Shown: piece by piece, positions 7,755-53,267 of the stretch
Position numbering within the stretch: the first letter of the stretch is position 1
Layout: every line of letters starts with the position of its first letter
Sequence record: PZ386966.1
Direction: 5' to 3' (one strand)
Origin: a phage
Length of the DNA stretch: 64,000 nt
Translations under genes and position numbers: made by a program
Notes under the pieces: generated by a model
The model's database searches: none
Told to the model about the DNA's origin: nothing
What the model saw: the letters and a program-made list of their open reading frames with translations, nothing else

Positions 7755-8152
7755 GACTCTTAAACAGACACAGCTTTGTAGTAAAGCGTAAAGTCTCTGA
7801 AGACGGTTATTATAATGATGATGGTGATTGGGTAGCTTCACAAGATATTGTAGAGGTTAACTGTAAAGGTAATATCCAGCCATATATCAAAGGTTCTGTA
7901 AAGAATGGTACACAGATTGCTTTACCGGAAGGTATCAGGCTTACCGATACAAGAATCCTGTATACCACATATAAACTTAGAACTTCAGATGATGTAGAGT
8001 GGAATGAGTCTGATATTGTTATGATTGATGGTCATGAGTATGAAGTATTTATGACTATGGATTGGTCACAGCAATTAGCCCATACATCCCATTATGAATA
8101 TATCATTATTAGAAGGGATAAAATGAATGCAGTTAGAAACAGCAGAACTTGA
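7751..8152 (+). CDS. hypothetical head-tail joining protein
   Basis: Position; overlapping start (ATGA). Confidence 0.35.
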   Translation: MRLLNRHSFVVKRKVSEDGYYNDDGDWVASQDIVEVNCKGNIQPYIKGSVKNGTQIALPEGIRLTDTRILYTTYKLRTSDDVEWNESDIVMIDGHEYEVFMTMDWSQQLAHTSHYEYIIIRRDKMNAVRNSRT

Positions 8153-8726
8153 AAAAGGTCTAGTTAGAACCTTAGTGGGTGTTATTGGTCACAGATTAGC
8201 TCGTGATAAAAATAATAGGCCAAACGTAATTAGAGCTTACCCTTCTGATAACTCAAATGACAAAGGTTTAAAACCTGACCAGCCATTTATCACTGTATAT
8301 TGTCAAGATGCTGCAACACCTTATGGTTGGGTTCTTGATAAGTTTGTTGAGGATGATGTAGTTTGCTACAGAATTGCTTTTCAGATTCCAGTATTAATTA
8401 CGGTGAATGGTAAAGGTGCTCACAGTATTATGCTTGAGCTTAAACAACGATTAGAGATGAGTTCAGTCAGAGATTTAATCCTTGAAGAAACAGGAGCTAC
8501 AGTATTAGACACTGGAGCTATCCCGAATGACTATACTTATCTCAATACAGATTTCGAAAATTCTGCACCTCTTGTTGTAACTCTTGTAAAAAACTCAGTC
8601 CTGAAGGATGAACGTGGAAGTATTATTGAACGTGTCATTGTTGATGGTGAGTTGGTTTATGAAGAAGGACAAGAGCCACCAGAATATACTATCCATCTAG
8701 ATGTAGACTCCAAAGGGGTAAAATAA
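8127..8726 (+). CDS. hypothetical tail completion protein
   Basis: Position upstream of sheath gene. Confidence 0.35.
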   Translation: MQLETAELEKGLVRTLVGVIGHRLARDKNNRPNVIRAYPSDNSNDKGLKPDQPFITVYCQDAATPYGWVLDKFVEDDVVCYRIAFQIPVLITVNGKGAHSIMLELKQRLEMSSVRDLILEETGATVLDTGAIPNDYTYLNTDFENSAPLVVTLVKNSVLKDERGSIIERVIVDGELVYEEGQEPPEYTIHLDVDSKGVK

Positions 8727-11255: not shown

Positions 11256-19253
<7,998 letters not shown>

Positions 19254-22816: not shown

Positions 22817-22845
22817 TTGACTGATTGTTAAGATGGTGTTAATAT
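22817..22845 (+). promoter_or_regulatory. sigma70-like promoter candidate
   Basis: 'ttgact' then 17 bp then 'taatat', followed by inverted repeat aagatggtg/caccatctt (22834-22875). Confidence 0.35.
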
Positions 22846-29789: not shown

Positions 29790-30349
29790 TCAGTGTACCT
29801 CAAGCCAATTCTTACCAACTTTACCAGTACCAGTTACAAGCGTTTCCTCCTTAAGTCCTAAGTTTCTTGATGCCTGACCATACATCCAGTCAATCACTGC
29901 TTTAACATCTTGTGTCATCTCTTCTGGGCACTCCCAACTATTCTCATCGTGGTATGCTAGAAGCAATCTAGCACCAATGGCTGGTTTTCGACCATTCAGC
30001 TTTGTAAGACCCTCTTCACAAGTTCTTCTACAAGCGAGGTTGATAGCTTCATTCTGAACCTGACTTTCCGAACCCATGAGCAAGTAATTTAAAAGTTTGT
30101 GCGGAGATTTACACCACAACCATGCACCTGCTACCTTTACAAAACCACCCTTAGATATTGCAGCAGTCTTACCAAACACCTCTTCAAGAGCCTTCTTAGT
30201 GGCTTTGAAGTCTGCTTCCAAATTATCTATCAACTTTTTAATCTTAGGAAGGCGTACAAAGTAAGTTTGCTTAGTTAAAGCACCTTCTTCGGTTGTTGAT
30301 GCTTTAATCGTCTTGGCAAACTTCTCATCACCTGCCCCAAACAATACAT
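29790..30349 (-). CDS. DNA polymerase family A, C-terminal exon (exon 2)
   Basis: Track ORF begins at a TTG, not ATG; frame opens right after an in-frame TGA; N-terminus 'LFGAGDEKFAKT' completes Pol A motif B (T7 'YGAGDEK'); 'LLLAYHDENSWECPEE' is motif C (HDE). Confidence 0.6.
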
Positions 30350-31154
30350 CTGGTCAATACACTCGCAAGGTGTACCAGTTCTCTTATGAACTTCTCCGCA
30401 TTTCTACGGAGTGTCGGACTATATCACGTAGTAGTAATACTACCGTTGCACTTGGGAATGGTCATTAGCTTACCAACCTACTCTACTCAGTTCATACATT
30501 AAGTATGCTTTTCGATAGTCTCTGAACGTTTCTCTGTTAGGAATCTCTATAATCATGTTATTTACTCAGGTAGTCAATTGCCCTTTGCATATTATCAACG
30601 CTATCTGCAAGTAACCCTAAAGCCCTATTGCAATTGTGGCACAACATACCTCTTACTTTTCCGGTTTTGTGGTCATGGTCAACGACAAGTTTAGCTTTAT
30701 GCCGTGAACTATTCATGATAAAACCTTCACCGCCACAAATTTGACATTTGTAATCACAGTTGCGAAGTAGGTTTTCAACCTCTTCTCTTTCTAAACCATA
30801 TGTTCTCAGGTAGTAATTCTTAACTCTACCTTTCTCTCCGCAATGTGAAGAACAATAAACTTGCCTTGCTGTTCTAGGCATGAACACCTTCTCACAGCTA
30901 GGACATTTCTTAGTAAGAACCCTATGTTCTGCTCTTCTGTCAAATTTTAATACGCAACTTCTGCACCGTTTTTGATTGTATTGGTATGGTTTAAACTCTG
31001 CACCACACTCAGTACACAATCTTTCTTTGTAACCTGCCATTGTCTCTCTCCTTTGCTTTAGGAGTCCTAACAGAGACTTCGCTGCTGATTACCATATCTT
31101 TACAGACTTAGGCTTCCAGCAATTCACAACGTTTTACATGCGCCACTGACGCAT
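30350..31154 (-). mobile_element. group I intron (IA-like) interrupting the DNA polymerase gene, with HEG in P6 region
   Basis: Minus-strand conserved elements in canonical order: P-like 'aattgctggaagcc' (31111-31124), Q-like 'aatcagcagc' (31081-31090), R 'gttcagagacta' (30516-30527), S 'gatatagtcc' (30416-30425). Proposed 5' splice after a U and 3' splice after a G restore an in-frame motif B. Exact boundaries inferred. Confidence 0.6.
30558..31040 (-). CDS. intron-encoded endonuclease VII-like (HNH-type) homing endonuclease
   Basis: 'VVDHDHKTGKVRGMLCHNCNRALG' matches the T4 endo VII catalytic motif; N-terminal CxxC zinc ribbons; lies between the two polymerase exons. Confidence 0.6.
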   Translation of the reverse strand: MAGYKERLCTECGAEFKPYQYNQKRCRSCVLKFDRRAEHRVLTKKCPSCEKVFMPRTARQVYCSSHCGEKGRVKNYYLRTYGLEREEVENLLRNCDYKCQICGGEGFIMNSSRHKAKLVVDHDHKTGKVRGMLCHNCNRALGLLADSVDNMQRAIDYLSK

Positions 31155-33324
31155 AAATGCCATTTTTGGCTTTCTTACGACCTTTGCTAATTTCTTGAAG
31201 AAGATTTGTATCCTGAGTGGCTCGACAGGTCAAGATGTCTTCCTCTTTATTAAGGCTGAAGTAAATACTATTTAAAGTATGCGCATCAGTTCCTGAGTAC
31301 ACCACGTACAAGTCATTTTCCGAATCATAATGCAAATACTTGTCAATCTCTGGGTTTAGATACTGGTCAAAATGTTTGCAATAGTATCTGCCATCATCTT
31401 GTTTGACAAACTCAACCTCTTCTTTACCCTCTGTTACTGCTTTAGTGAACTCTTTATCACCCATAAAGTTACACAGCAGTACAAGTTGCGCGCTATTCAT
31501 ATCTGCTGAAACAATATTAGTTCCCTCTTCACAAGTCCACACCTCCCTCATAGGTGCTCCATAGACAGCAGCACCAGACGGTACGTTTACAATACCATAT
31601 TGTGTCATACGTCCAGTTGAAGTACCAAACACCATTGCACCAGCACTAAGGCGACCATCAGGACGAATCTGGTTCAACCATCCTTTTTCATCATCCTTTG
31701 AGTTCTCAATAGTTCTGCGTCGGTGCATCAAAGTGTAGTACTTAGCAATCTTCTGTCCAAGCTCACCTTCAATCGTATCATAAGATGATTCAGTAAGTTT
31801 TGGTGAAGTACGAATTAAGCAAGGTTCAAGTAAGTCTGTGTACTTCTTAACAGACCAGTTATGCTCAATGTACTGGACACCTTCATGTTCAACATAGCTC
31901 AAGCCACAACGCTCAACCATCTCATCCCATTTAGGATGCTTGGTAATCATCTTTTTGTTGTCTTTGAAACGACAAACCTTAACAGGACGACCATCAGAGT
32001 CTTTCTTATAGTTCCAGTCATCAGGAATCCAACCAACTGATTTCAAGTAGTCCTTCACAACAGCCACCTGAGTCATTCGAGAAACTTCAAACTCAATTGG
32101 TGTATATGGTGCATCAATCAAACCTGTGTAGCGACTTGACTCAAGTCCAAAGTGGTTAACAACATGACTGTTATAGTACTTCACAGTTTTAACTGTTTTT
32201 ACTGGCTTCCAGTCTTTGCATTTCTTACCAATCTTTGCATTCAACTCGTTGCAAATTGCACGAGCATCCTTCATTGCTACAAAACCTTCCTTGTACTCTT
32301 CGCCAGTTACAGTGTTGGTTGGTGTATAGCAATTCCGCTTTTCAATGTTAAAAATCTTTGTAGTTGGCTTACCAAATGGCTTGATTTCATATGTCTGCAT
32401 CTCACCGTTACGTACCTGCTGACGATACTTTGTCTTAGGGTACTTGGTAATTCTTTTCAGTCCATCTGCATGACCAAACGCTTCAACATACTCATTCCAA
32501 GCTTTTGCAAACTCTTCTCCAGTGACTTTACCTTTGGTCTTAATAGTTGGTGGAAGGTGTGGTTCAACTTCTGAAGCAAGCTCATTAGTCAACTTGTCAA
32601 GTTCCTTTACATGGAACTCCATAAGCTCTTTATCAGCTTTCCAACCATTGATAGCCTGTTGACTCATCCAGAAAGATGTCTCTTTAGCTCGCATATAGGT
32701 TTCATAAGTGTCTATGCCACACTTCTTTAACTTGAGATATTCATTATCCAGTGCGCGTTTAGTTTTGGCGTTAATACGGATATCTTCTACAACACGAGTG
32801 AAGATTTCTGCATTCCACACACCCCAATGTTCAATCTCTGGTTTACGGACACCAACACGAGCACCCCATGCTGCCAAGCCATGAGCACCTTTATAGCCTT
32901 TTGGAGTTGGTCTATCCATCCACTGAACACGAGACTGGATAAGAGAGTCCTGAAAGAAATTACTCCACGGCTTACATTTTGGATTATCGAAGTTCCACAA
33001 ATCAGGTGCAATATGATTGAAAACCCACCAGTCATACCCCAGACCATTATGGATACAAAGCCGTTTTGCCTTTAACGCAAACTCAATACCTTCACGTAAA
33101 CCACCCTTAATGTACTTGGTATACTTGTGACCGAGGATAGGCTCATCTGTAAAGACCCATACAGGTGGCTCCTCATCGTCAGATTTATAGTCTGCGAAAG
33201 CCATGACGTGGACTTTAGTGAACTCAAGGAGTAAACCATCAGTTTCTGTATCACCAACTAAGTGTAAGTTTTTAAAATCTACGTTTTCCATTTGTACTCC
33301 CTCTAATTCGTTAACCCCATACAT
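31155..33324 (-). CDS. DNA polymerase family A, N-terminal exon (exon 1; uninterrupted ORF runs to 31108)
   Basis: Exo I-like 'DTETDGL', motif A-like 'VSADMNSAQLVLL', start of motif B 'RKKAKNGIY'; ORF then continues into intron sequence and stops. Confidence 0.65.
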
Positions 33325-33350
33325 TACTGCAAAAAATTATAAAAAGCAAG

Positions 33351-33380
33351 TTGACAATGTACTTGACAAGGTGTTAATCT
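33351..33380 (+). promoter_or_regulatory. promoter candidate in divergent control region
   Basis: Two 'ttgaca' copies (33351, 33363) with a weak -10 'ttaatc' 17 bp downstream of the first. Confidence 0.3.
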
Positions 33381-33462
33381 TTGCGAAGTGGGTTTTTACT
33401 TAAAAGGTTACTTAACAGTTTAACTATACAGACACTTTAAAACTCTTAAAAGATTATTTAAT

Positions 33463-33503
33463 AGCTTTTAAAAAGCTTTAAAGTATAACGTATAGAATAC
33501 GTT
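33463..33503. promoter_or_regulatory. two palindromic operator-like sites
   Basis: 'agctttt a aaaagct' (33463-33477) and 'aacgtat aga atacgtt' (33487-33503) in the AT-rich gap between divergent operons. Confidence 0.4.
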
Positions 33504-33547
33504 AAGATAAAAGATTAAAACTTAATAGTTACTTAAAAGAGGCTTAC

Positions 33548-33970
33548 ATGCAGAAAATGTTTGTTCACCCAGACATAGCTGACTTTGTTAGGGCTTTGCA
33601 GAAGTTGGAAGAACTTGACATTGCTGCTCAACGGGAATATGCTCACCATCACAGGAGAATGGTTGATATACAACATGAAATAGAGTTGTCTGAAAACTAC
33701 GAAGATGACTTAAAATGCTCTGTATTTGAGCATATGAAAGATGTTGCTACAGCTAGACGTAAAGCTAAAGATACGGTTGCTTTACTAGATTCTCTTAAAA
33801 AGAGGTTGCAAAGTGGTACAGACCTGTGTAGTCTAGCGTCACTGATTAACGATGTTGAAACTTCTTGGGATAGACATTACTATCCACGTTCTGAAAAGAC
33901 GCTTGACTTTTCTTCATCTGAAAACTTAAAATGTTCTAGAAAGAAACTTAACCAACTGAGAGAGAAATAA
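33548..33970 (+). CDS. hypothetical protein
   Basis: First ORF of rightward operon; no motif. Confidence 0.4.
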   Translation: MQKMFVHPDIADFVRALQKLEELDIAAQREYAHHHRRMVDIQHEIELSENYEDDLKCSVFEHMKDVATARRKAKDTVALLDSLKKRLQSGTDLCSLASLINDVETSWDRHYYPRSEKTLDFSSSENLKCSRKKLNQLREK

Positions 33971-33971
33971 T

Positions 33972-34784
33972 ATGAATACTACTGTAGACCAAATGCTTAA
34001 AGAAAAAGGTATTGACGAAGCATTCTTAATCAATGCCGTAGAAAGCATGGCTATGATTCTTCGTGGAAACAACTATACAGAACAGTTTATTCCTGAGAGT
34101 TACAACTTACCTAAAGATAAGTCTGATAACGGTGCTTTTGCAGAACAGGTTAACATGATGTTGACAGACCATGCACTAGCTCTTGCATCTATCGCTGTTG
34201 GTGTTGATGCACTTGCTGAGTTCATTTTTTATGAAATGCAGAAGAATGACTATATCAGGATGTCAGACGAAAATAAGGAACTGTTGCTGACTCAGGATAC
34301 TGATTCCCTTATTGATACAATCATTGCATCAACAAGTGCTGTTATGGCTGCTCTTGAGAAGCGCATGGAAGAGAAGCTGTCACGATATGAAAAGCTTGAT
34401 TGGGGTGTAGAAGAGTTAACCCCACGAATCAAAGAGATTATCCAGCAAACTAAAGAGTCTTTAGAAGAAGCTGTGAAAGATGATTCTGTAGCTAATGTAG
34501 AACCACTACAGGTGAAAGTTGCTCTGATGATTCCAGCTATTTCTACAATGATGAATATCGTTGCACTAATCCAACTTTCTCAGATGTTGGGGGCAAGCAT
34601 TGAGTTCATTGAGGAGATGACTGGTGGTGTCAGTATGCAAGCAATCAATGATGTTTTGGTAAACATTGGCGCTTCAATCATTGAAGAGAAGCTACGTATT
34701 AATTTTGGTGATGATTTTGTGAAGCAAGTCTCAGCTATGGCTGAAAAAGAGCAATCACAGATTACTAGTGAACAACTGCACTAA
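33972..34784 (+). CDS. hypothetical protein
   Basis: 270 aa; no motif. Confidence 0.4.
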   Translation: MNTTVDQMLKEKGIDEAFLINAVESMAMILRGNNYTEQFIPESYNLPKDKSDNGAFAEQVNMMLTDHALALASIAVGVDALAEFIFYEMQKNDYIRMSDENKELLLTQDTDSLIDTIIASTSAVMAALEKRMEEKLSRYEKLDWGVEELTPRIKEIIQQTKESLEEAVKDDSVANVEPLQVKVALMIPAISTMMNIVALIQLSQMLGASIEFIEEMTGGVSMQAINDVLVNIGASIIEEKLRINFGDDFVKQVSAMAEKEQSQITSEQLH

Positions 34785-40217: not shown

Positions 40218-40695
40218 AGAGTACCTGCGCTATGACCCCGAAACAGGGGTCTTTACTTGGTTAGTTGATAGAAAAGGTAAGGCCAAAGCTGGCTCAGTAG
40301 CAGGTTTGAAACACCATAGCGGTTATATCTATATAAAACTCTTCGGGAAAAGATACGCAGCACACAGACTGGCATTCTTGTATATGAAAGGATACCTCCC
40401 AAAATTTGTTGACCATAAGAATGGTATCAGGCACGACAACTGGTTCGACAATTTGAGAGAGTGTAGCAGGTCAGACAATAACTGTAATGCAGTCAAAAGA
40501 AGAGATAATAAATCTGGTGTGAAGGGTGTATATTACCACAAGCAAAGGGGTAGATGGGCTGCACAAGTCAAGCATAATAAAGTTTGCTATCATCTAGGTT
40601 TATTTGACTCTATCGCTGAGGCTGAATCAGTTGTCAAAAAGAAAAGAGAAGAACTCCATAGAGAGTTTACAAATCACGGAGAAGCTTATGAATGA
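40171..40695 (+). CDS. HNH homing endonuclease with AP2 DNA-binding domain
   Basis: 'YDPETGVFTW' N-terminal motif, HNH_3-like 'VDHKNGIRHDNWFDNLRECSRSDN', AP2-like 'SGVKGVYYHKQRGRWAAQV'; overlaps end of exonuclease gene. Confidence 0.6.
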   Translation: MISMGGHQMLTQQTLKEYLRYDPETGVFTWLVDRKGKAKAGSVAGLKHHSGYIYIKLFGKRYAAHRLAFLYMKGYLPKFVDHKNGIRHDNWFDNLRECSRSDNNCNAVKRRDNKSGVKGVYYHKQRGRWAAQVKHNKVCYHLGLFDSIAEAESVVKKKREELHREFTNHGEAYE

Positions 40696-41192
40696 TTAAA
40701 GTTAAAGGTTTTGGGAGTTGTCCAACTTATGGACATTGGGTTTCACTATGTGGTGAAGTTGACCCAGCAAAGCACTTTGGTTTTGTCTACCTAGTGTACT
40801 GCAAAAAGACTGGACAGTACTATTTGGGTAAGAAACAGCTTAATAGCGTAACCAAAAGAAAAGTTGCTGGCAAGACTCGGAAGAAGATAGTCACTAAGGA
40901 AAGTGATTGGATGACTTACGAGACTTCTTCTGAGTATATTAAAAAAGATATTGAGAGCTTTGGAAAAGAATTTTTTGACTTTTACATTATCCAAACCTAC
41001 TACACAAAAGGTGGTCTAGTTTATGGTGAAGCAAACCTTCAACATAAGTTCGATGTGATGACAAAAAGGATTGACTCGAAGCTCAGACTCTTCTACAATG
41101 CCAATATTGCAGCAATTAAGTTTATTACTAAAGAAACTTATGAAGATGCTGAAAAAAGAATCCATAAGGTAATGAAAGCAAATCGTGCTTGA
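40692..41192 (+). CDS. GIY-YIG-like nuclease (putative)
   Basis: 'FGFVYLVYCKKTGQYYLGKK' resembles the GIY...YIG core; remainder not recognisably conserved. Confidence 0.3.
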   Translation: MIKVKGFGSCPTYGHWVSLCGEVDPAKHFGFVYLVYCKKTGQYYLGKKQLNSVTKRKVAGKTRKKIVTKESDWMTYETSSEYIKKDIESFGKEFFDFYIIQTYYTKGGLVYGEANLQHKFDVMTKRIDSKLRLFYNANIAAIKFITKETYEDAEKRIHKVMKANRA

Positions 41193-53246: not shown

Positions 53247-53267
53247 GGGGCTTAAAAGCCCCATTTT
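53247..53267 (+). terminator. weak terminator/attenuator hairpin
   Basis: 'ggggcttaaaagcccc' then 'atttt'. Confidence 0.35.

Follow-up and report, generated by a model that had tools for sequence, protein, structure and literature searches.

In a 64,000-nucleotide stretch of phage DNA (sequence record PZ386966.1; the window), the intergenic gap between the DNA polymerase gene and the first gene of the rightward operon is best explained by a pair of back-to-back promoters of the host type, the rightward one leading into a conserved 5' leader with secondary structure, in which the two palindromes of the gap would be stem segments; we give this reading as a whole an even chance of being correct, and our confidence in its promoter part is higher. 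A first-pass annotation had described the gap as a divergent control region of 223 bp, rich in AT, with two TTGACA hexamers and two near-perfect palindromes that would bind a dimeric repressor or activator of both operons. The general description held. The gap is a conserved divergent start region between two blocks of replication and nucleotide-metabolism genes, the hexamers and the palindromes are present (Table 1), with both hexamers on the plus strand and both palindromes perfect, and the AT content is 72.5% compared with 60.8% for the window; whether the length considered is 100, 150 or 200 bp, the AT maximum of the 64 kb falls within the gap. Its length had to be corrected to 256 bp (33292-33547), because the polymerase gene starts with an ATG at 33291 on the minus strand, and the role given to the palindromes was not borne out, as they are distant from both promoters and form pieces of a dyad of ~96 nucleotides (nt). 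Judged by its sequence, the window is a Felixounavirus (Felix O1-like, ~97% identical), and the locus is the gene 96/97 gap of phage Felix O1.

The gap was aligned among Felixounavirus, Suspvirus and Mooglevirus, and identity to the window was measured by region. Identity was 85-93% over 33340-33398 and 80-82% over 33399-33547, compared with 53-63% at the third codon positions of both flanking genes; the stretch 33292-33339, outside the ribosome-binding site, was 55-80% identical. Since 33340-33547 stands at 80-93% across three genera against 53-63% for third codon positions, it is under selection. As judged from the alignment, these ~208 non-coding bp are held by purifying selection no weaker than that acting on the adjoining first rightward gene, whose product of 140 amino acids (aa) is 62-75% identical between genera. 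The constraint spans nearly every position of 33340-33547 and extends beyond the palindromes alone.

Candidate promoters of the gap

The candidate rightward promoter, designated PR, has a −35 element that matches the consensus at all six positions, a hexamer that does not vary within Felixounavirus, Suspvirus or Mooglevirus and that Kolesnikvirus and Pectobacterium phage Arno162 have too. At the PR position, Kolesnikvirus has TTGACA, 18 bp and TACATT, and Arno162 has TTGACA, 17 bp and TAGGCT, while the −10 region of Mooglevirus reads TGg-TAGTCT. Transcription from PR would start near 33387 and proceed rightward. The A-rich block TAAAAAGCAAG upstream of the −35 element was invariant in seven sequences from three genera, and similar blocks, AAAAAAGT(G/T), precede other TTGACA promoters of Felix O1. 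Downstream, the block CGAAGTGGGTTTTTACTTAAAAGG, which would be the first to be transcribed, has a homologue, CGAGGGGGTTTATCTAAAAGG, behind the Felix O1 promoter P22. Non-coding DNA of the window and of the rest of the Felix O1 genome was then scanned for TTGAC(A/T)-N16-18-TAnnnT. The scan returned 17 sites including PR, where ~1 would be expected by chance as estimated from base composition, and 16 of the 17 were oriented with the local genes; the exception, at window position 22817, has an unclear gene context. An A-rich block immediately precedes most of the sites, and in several the spacer is 18 bp long. In the GenBank record of phage AYO145A the same 30-mer (TTGACA-N18-TAATCT) is annotated as a promoter, by consensus matching only, and in all two GenBank records annotate either TTGACA-N18-TAATCT or TTGACA-N16-GTTAAT at the gap, again by consensus matching. 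On these comparisons the first TTGACA very probably functions as a −35 element, and PR, together with the leftward promoter described below, would probably be read by the host sigma-70 RNA polymerase. In Felix O1, open reading frame (ORF) 96 was found by reverse transcription PCR to be transcribed within 5 minutes, and Whichard et al. (2010) assumed that early transcription starts from divergent promoters at genes 96/97 (PMC3185647).

On the other strand we infer a leftward promoter, PL, with a predicted start near 33314, from which transcription would enter the polymerase gene after a leader of ~22 nt. The PL hexamers, TTGCTT and TA(A/G)(T/G)GT, were present in 13 of 13 distinct variants from three genera, and the spacer was exactly 17 nt in all 13, despite five quite different spacer sequences. 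Fixed hexamers and fixed spacing around a drifting spacer are the pattern of a real promoter, which supports PL. The −35 element TTGCTT matches three of six consensus positions. At the same back-to-back position Arno162 has TTGACC-N17-CATACT, as read from the alignment. Two other leftward arrangements were rejected: a perfect TATAAT on the minus strand (33341 to 33336) has no −35 element at a usable distance and is not kept in other genera, and the TTGACAA repeats, read leftward as TTGTCA, have no −10 element at 16-18 bp.

The second TTGACA of the gap is invariant as well. The first-pass annotation had taken both hexamers as −35-like; both face right, and this reading suits the first, whereas the second lies within the PR spacer and no −10-like hexamer was found 16-18 bp downstream of it. 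The tandem arrangement GTTGACAA-N4/5-CTTGACA was found at exactly two other non-coding sites in Felix O1, namely P41, in the divergent gap between genes 40 and 41 (Whichard's P41), and P22, in the gap between ORF21 and ORF22. CT(T)AAAAGG stands behind each of the three tandem promoters, always ~36-37 bp away, and the P22 copy is visibly homologous to the window over ~85 nt, including the block CGAAGTGGGTTTTTACTTAAAAGG. The leaders behind P41 and P22 fold significantly (z = −3.1 and −3.3), with hairpins that differ in sequence and lie in the same relative place; different stem sequences within the same architecture argue for structure over one shared operator. An analogous trio is present in the P41 leader, where CTTAAAAGG is followed by CTTAAAAG-C-CTTTTAAG, the last one overlapping an AAGAGG. 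On this evidence, the module in the window, comprising the tandem TTGACA, a start of the type GGGTTT..CTTAAAAGG and a predicted hairpin leader, is one of three paralogous copies that head major transcription units of Felix O1.

Two side observations concern the tandem promoter. In the gene 40/41 gap of Felix O1, TATAAATA, which we take to be the T4 late-promoter consensus, stands directly after the P41 tandem promoter (L016 ~13540-13550), heading the structural-gene unit. The exact tandem GTTGACAA-N4-CTTGACAAGGTGTA, followed by TATGAT or TACATT, was also seen in uncultivated viral contigs of IMG/VR (L018, L030, L035, L051, L064, L068; L033, L045, L046, L054, L056, L073). For two such contigs, a megablast search against 50,697 known phage records gave no match, so that the tandem −35 design extends beyond the known Ounavirinae.

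Palindromes, dyad and predicted leader

Dinucleotide shuffles of the gap contained a palindrome with arms of at least 7 in 35% of cases and with arms of at least 8 in 14%. The palindromes alone are thus unremarkable in such AT-rich DNA, and conservation was used as evidence instead. Related phages gave a mixed picture of the two palindromes. Palindrome 2 keeps its symmetry through two symmetric double substitutions, Suspvirus and Mooglevirus having T-A for A-T and the Michonne group T-A for C-G, but it is degraded in Arno162 and missing from Kolesnikvirus. Three lineages have lost the symmetry of palindrome 1: AYO145A and SUSP1 carry an A to G change, which would give U-G if it were RNA and which occurs in two or more lineages, and Sf13 and L040 carry a mismatch. 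As a hairpin of its own, palindrome 1 is unexceptional (z = −0.27), compared with z = −3.4 for palindrome 2.

Both palindromes are contained in an imperfect dyad of ~96 nt with its centre near 33458, the closing stem of which is formed by CTTAAC (33411-16) and GTTAAG (33501-06). The stretch 33408-33509, folded as RNA, had a free energy of −20.0 kcal/mol compared with −10.4 +/- 2.4 in shuffles (z = −3.95), and folded as DNA it gave z = −3.2. Among all 102-nt segments genome-wide, its GC-adjusted rank was 74 of 6390. Over 14 distinct sequences, 26 pairs of the dyad were 98% kept, and its closing stem shows two double-sided changes. In SUSP1 and Sf13 the same architecture was obtained as the minimum-energy fold, with z about −4. 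Over the 14 sequences, the 3' arm at 33501-06 is complementary either to the distal 33411-16 (100% of cells paired) or to the left arm of palindrome 2 (95%), and in each of these alternative pairings it is the same two positions that show double-sided changes. This three-way covariation fits alternative pairings in RNA or in single-stranded DNA.

Based on these observations, we propose that the ~160 bp from 33387 to 33547, with both palindromes, would be transcribed as the 5' leader of the rightward operon and would not serve as an operator field. The ~96-nt dyad would fold into one long AU-rich hairpin, to which the local hairpin of palindrome 2 would be an alternative sharing the 3' arm, and the structure would most likely act at the level of RNA, by RNase III-type processing, by 5' stabilisation, or by governing translation or elongation along the long operon. 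The hairpin has ~22% GC, would lie 25-120 nt into the leader and has no U-tract, and a terminator scan found no terminator at it. Rfam 15 gave no match at gathering score across the window, and the permissive search of 33200-33650 returned only chance-level hits to microRNA precursors (E >= 1). A pairing of the 5' end, GUGGGUUUUU, with the Shine-Dalgarno region, which appeared in the fold of the whole leader, was rejected because by eye it is not conserved in Suspvirus and Mooglevirus.

The same part of the gap carries seven octamers of the type CTTWAHAG, that is, 7 in ~150 bp compared with 0.12 per 150 bp elsewhere in the window. They are often paired 11-12 bp apart, and the array is kept in all Ounavirinae genera examined. 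The octamer pattern was chosen after the data had been seen, and it is the only pattern that ranks first in the periodicity scan; helical phasing or intrinsic curvature was dropped as an explanation, since the Fourier power of AG, AA, AAA and TT at 10-12 bp was unexceptional genome-wide. In an unbiased count of 7-mers, CTTAAAA and TTAAAAG were over-represented in all non-coding phage DNA (z about 6.5). The non-coding octamers, 29 of which are in sense and 12 in antisense orientation, occur in mixed contexts, as terminator loops (e.g. 53251), beside ribosome-binding sites and as pairing partners in hairpins.

Several points weigh against the reading as two promoters with a structured leader. 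With regard to PR, the −10 element TAATCT matches only three of six consensus positions (A2 and T6 being present) and is set behind an 18-bp spacer, a stricter consensus promoter scanner called nothing at 33340-33380, and Whichard et al. saw no obviously sigma-70-like sequence in the 96/97 gap (PMC3185647). A literature search on Felix O1-type phages found neither a transcriptome nor a mapped promoter, and a mapped transcription start was not found in the literature on any phage of the Ounavirinae. With regard to PL, its −35 element shares bases with the A-rich block in front of PR and may be conserved on account of PR, and rival leftward candidates lie in invariant DNA, one annotated in the ASO1A record (TTAAGA-N15-TATAGT) and one called by the scanner (33482 to 33453). 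As for the leader, the predicted hairpin is weak and AU-rich, the rank of the dyad is only in the top 1.2% and its boundaries were chosen after the fold had been seen, the whole leader (33385-33560, 176 nt) does not fold significantly (z = −1.08), significance being limited to 33408-33509, and the RNAalifold consensus is weak. The minimum-energy fold of Michonne differs (z = −2.1), and the leader of Kolesnikvirus is unstructured (z = 0.06). The covariation consists of only two independent double substitutions, from which an RNA hairpin, a DNA cruciform and a symmetric protein site are not separable, and the dense, conserved octamer array is not accounted for by the hairpin alone.

Table 1. Coordinates of the features described (positions in the window unless marked L016).
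Feature	Position	Strand	Description
PR, candidate promoter	33351..33380	+	−35 TTGACA 33351-56; 18-nt spacer ending TGt (33372-74); −10 TAATCT 33375-80
A-rich block TAAAAAGCAAG	33340..33350	+	upstream of PR −35; UP-element-like; overlaps PL −35 on the other strand
Second TTGACA	33363..33368	+	12 bp after the first, within PR spacer; invariant
Predicted initial transcribed block CGAAGTGGGTTTTTACTTAAAAGG	33384..33407	+	nearly invariant across genera
PL, candidate promoter	33321..33349	−	−35 TTGCTT 33349 to 33344; 17-nt spacer; −10 TAATGT 33326 to 33321
Imperfect dyad, predicted long AU-rich hairpin	33411..33506	+	~96 nt; centre near 33458; contains both palindromes
Palindrome 1	33463..33477		AGCTTTT-A-AAAAGCT; perfect 7+1+7 in the window
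Palindrome 2	33486..33504		TAACGTAT-AGA-ATACGTTA; perfect 8+3+8, (T)AACGTAT-AGA-ATACGTT(A)
CTTWAHAG-type octamers	33399, 33411, 33445, 33457 (TTTAATAG), 33476, 33521, 33532 (span 33399..33539)	+
DNA polymerase gene start	33289..33303	−	ATG 33291 to 33289; ribosome-binding site GAGGGAG 33303 to 33297; read from sequence
First rightward gene start	33537..33550	+	ribosome-binding site AAGAGG 33537-42; ATG 33548-50
Early-region cassettes of Felix O1, first family	L016 631-717, 1231-1316, 2302-2387
Early-region cassettes of Felix O1, second family	L016 1940-1983, 2793-2895, 3991-4057

Alternative explanations and related systems

It is unlikely, but deserves to be considered first among the alternatives, that the gap is a replication origin, where opening of the AT-rich DNA and priming would be the work of the PR transcript or of an octamer-binding protein. 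The most AT-rich 100-200 bp of the 64 kb follow PR directly, and the gap lies at the point of strand switch and at the minimum of the cumulative GC skew, between the polymerase and the primase-helicase genes. It contains conserved direct repeats about one helical turn apart and a large dyad that folds also as DNA, and the constraint covers the whole 150 bp, beyond the stems. However, GC skew follows gene orientation and is not independent evidence, the periodicity of ~11 bp is unexceptional for simple features and the octamer pattern was picked post hoc, no initiator protein was identified, and the literature on Felix O1 yielded nothing on an origin. The origins oriF and oriG of T4 and the primary origin of T7 consist of a promoter and an unwinding element, and a conserved dyad or covarying stems are not required there. 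The gap resembles them in that the DNA richest in AT comes straight after a promoter and adjoins replication genes, and differs from them in that the promoter-plus-leader module is present three times, two of them at sites that do not adjoin replication genes.

We consider it doubtful that a phage or host factor uses the leader as a docking site, reads CTTWAHAG on DNA or RNA and tunes expression from early to middle, with the dyad being incidental; a nucleoid-type protein, a translational repressor or an S1-type enhancer would be candidates for such a factor. The octamer is ~50-fold enriched in the gap and is over-represented in non-coding DNA generally, where the copies are mostly in sense orientation. 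Octamers also follow all three tandem promoters by ~36-37 bp, and they fill a gene-free stretch of 1.6 kb in Felix O1, which is described below. The copy beside the ribosome-binding site presumably resembles AU-rich translational enhancers such as that of the T7 gene 10 leader. On the other hand, the contexts are heterogeneous, some copies being simply terminator loops as at 53251, the octamers are near-palindromic AT-rich words that double as pairing partners in hairpins, and no protein that binds them is known.

The proposal of the first-pass annotation, that the two palindromes bind a dimeric Xre- or Cro-like phage regulator acting on both divergent promoters, appears improbable. The symmetry of palindrome 2 has been preserved through two symmetric double substitutions, as it would be at a co-evolving dimer site, and its half-sites ACGTAT/ATACGT are 9 bp apart from centre to centre. 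In addition, the whole region is strongly constrained, and parallel changes among some direct-repeat octamers of Mooglevirus hint that a protein recognises them. However, the palindromes overlap neither promoter; they lie ~83-124 bp downstream of the PR −10 element and ~115-155 bp (at least 114 bp) from the PL −35 element, which places them out of range for classical operators at either. In AYO145A, Suspvirus and Sf13-type phages single uncompensated changes disrupt palindrome 1, neither palindrome has a second copy in the window, and the hairpins of the paralogous leaders differ in sequence. The Xre-like protein was not found among the neighbouring products scanned or in annotations: none of 16 neighbouring products gave a match to a helix-turn-helix or other DNA-binding family of Pfam or PHROG, a scan that did not take in every small ORF of the window, and the curated BASEL record names no regulator for the region. 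The first downstream protein (140 aa) was tried as an autoregulator, and no domain, structural or functional match was obtained. It had no Pfam match and no sequence match to solved structures, its family consists of 9 homologues only, all from Ounavirinae, and its AlphaFold2 model is an all-helical hairpin (predicted local distance difference test score, pLDDT, 72.7) with no match to a DNA-binding fold and no Foldseek match at E <= 0.001.

HK022 put provides an analogue for cis-acting elements that modify RNA polymerase. By that analogy, the three modules (window 33351-33506, P41 and P22) might be factor-independent elements that modify the host polymerase as it leaves the promoter, which we regard as very improbable; if true, it would explain how polymerase reads through the many intrinsic terminators in the very long Felix O1 operons, the alternative pairings of the 3' arm with 33411-16 (X:Y) and with the palindrome 2 left arm (L:Y) could be the switch, and the open question of Whichard et al., how terminators are passed without known polymerase-modifying proteins, would be answered.

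Read as two host-type promoters with a structured leader, the element is of an ordinary kind, with some unexplained details. Host-polymerase promoters are combined with structured leaders that act as RNA in the PL and PR leaders of phage lambda, with their RNase III and nut sites, and at the early RNase III sites of T7. The layout, with host promoters that head long early operons and are followed by a structured leader, is shared with the gap; in the window leader no sequence similarity to these systems, no boxA- or boxB-like motif and no N-like protein was seen, and RNase III processing is proposed only. A further likeness is to the PeSL cassettes of T4-type phages, which are repeated intergenic units with a strong sigma-70-like promoter, an AT-rich upstream block and a stem-loop, ending at the Shine-Dalgarno sequence and ATG of the following gene (Arbiol et al. 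2010, PMC2839356). Of these traits, the three tandem-TTGACA modules with A-rich upstream blocks are found here. The PeSL stem-loops, however, are G/C-rich terminators or attenuators located in the promoter or next to it, with ORFans of hyperplastic regions as neighbours (PMC2839356), whereas the element in the window has a long AU-rich hairpin without a U-tract, 25-120 nt into the predicted leader, and heads a core replication operon. It lacks the defining PeSL features, and the likeness is one of concept, the comparison being made without a claim of sequence similarity. As a separate observation, the early region of Felix O1 contains two families of near-identical intergenic cassettes repeated between small early ORFs (Table 1), each cassette combining a hairpin with a promoter or ribosome-binding site, e.g. 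GGGGCTTAAAAGTCTGTAAAGTAAGCCCC...CCTAAACTGGAGA and TTGACACTGGTTTTTAGATAGATTAAATT...GGGGAGGGAATGACCTTCCCC, and these are PeSL-like.

The closest precedent is the gene 96/97 gap of Felix O1, at the same locus and ~97% identical, where divergent promoters had been assumed (PMC3185647). Neither that paper nor the AYO145A and ASO1A records describe a tandem −35 module, its paralogues, the excess of conservation, the 96-nt dyad or the covariation. New here are the specific pair of candidate promoters, a phage-wide consensus (A-rich)-TTGACA-N17/18-TAnnnT, and a conserved leader, predicted to be structured, at the head of the replication operon, with the same module at two other major units. Phages of the Felix O1 type are widely used in Salmonella typing, biocontrol and therapy, and the organisation and timing of their transcription are little understood. 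The elements described are entry points for 5'-end mapping, for the engineering of expression cassettes in these phages and for locating the replication origin. Something new may lie in the unexplained parts, namely the three-way covariation, the octamer array and the second −35 element.

The locus, its neighbouring genes and other repeats

In a megablast search with the segment 32800-34100, 255 phage records matched, 214 of them at 95-99% identity, and these 214 are nearly all Felixounavirus phages of Salmonella, Escherichia and Shigella. According to annotated relatives, the family A DNA polymerase heads a leftward block with ligase, dihydrofolate reductase and thymidylate synthase, and the rightward block consists of two proteins of unknown function followed by deoxynucleoside monophosphate kinase, primase/helicase, exonuclease and ribonucleotide reductases. 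The in-frame ATG at 33291 was taken as the polymerase start, where a mechanical ORF list extends the frame to 33324. An equivalent start is annotated in 6 of 6 Suspvirus and Mooglevirus relatives, while Felix O1 and AYO145A annotate a longer ORF from the upstream in-frame ATG (equal to 33324); the reading frame of the polymerase is backed by codon-position conservation. On the right, the first gene encodes the 140-aa protein, which belongs to phrog_4039 with no function annotated. The next product (33972-34784, plus strand; 270 aa) is widely labelled 'minor tail protein' (phrog_4251). It is the second in the replication and nucleotide-metabolism operon, has no Pfam match and is 'hypothetical' in the curated BASEL record, and the tail label is probably a propagated mis-annotation.

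The polymerase gene is split in the window into an N-terminal part (31108-33291) and a C-terminal part (29790-30344, minus strand), the latter corresponding to positions 219-380 of Pfam DNA_pol_A. The insert between them (~30345-31107) carries an Endonuclease_7 ORF of 160 aa (30558-31040), and a permissive Rfam search gave a sub-threshold match to a group I intron at 30989-31125 on the minus strand (28 bits, E = 5.6e-5). In Felix O1 and AYO145A the gene is uninterrupted (2721 nt), and it is split also in MBP4696116. The insert is probably an intron with a homing endonuclease. Within the rightward operon, 40692-41192 (plus strand) encodes a SegE-type GIY-YIG homing endonuclease (Pfam PF19835, E = 1e-26), and in Kolesnikviruses the gene directly to the left of the conserved gap is that of an HNH endonuclease and not the polymerase.

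The octamers of the gap have a counterpart in Felix O1 (NC_005282), where 1.6 kb without annotated genes lie between convergent operons at 12306-13927 (L016 4307-5928). This stretch contains dozens of octamers of the forms CTGTTAAG, CTTGTTAG and CTTAAAAG at a spacing of roughly 10-12 bp, and the gene-free gap is present also in the BASEL phage JohannRWettstein; it is possible that the stretch is an origin, a packaging site or an array site for a protein. The most over-represented non-coding 7-mer was TGTGCAGG(T), with 6-7 copies compared with ~0.2 expected, and its copies cluster in a repeat-rich, gene-free stretch of Felix O1 at ~8000-8420 (L016 1-423).

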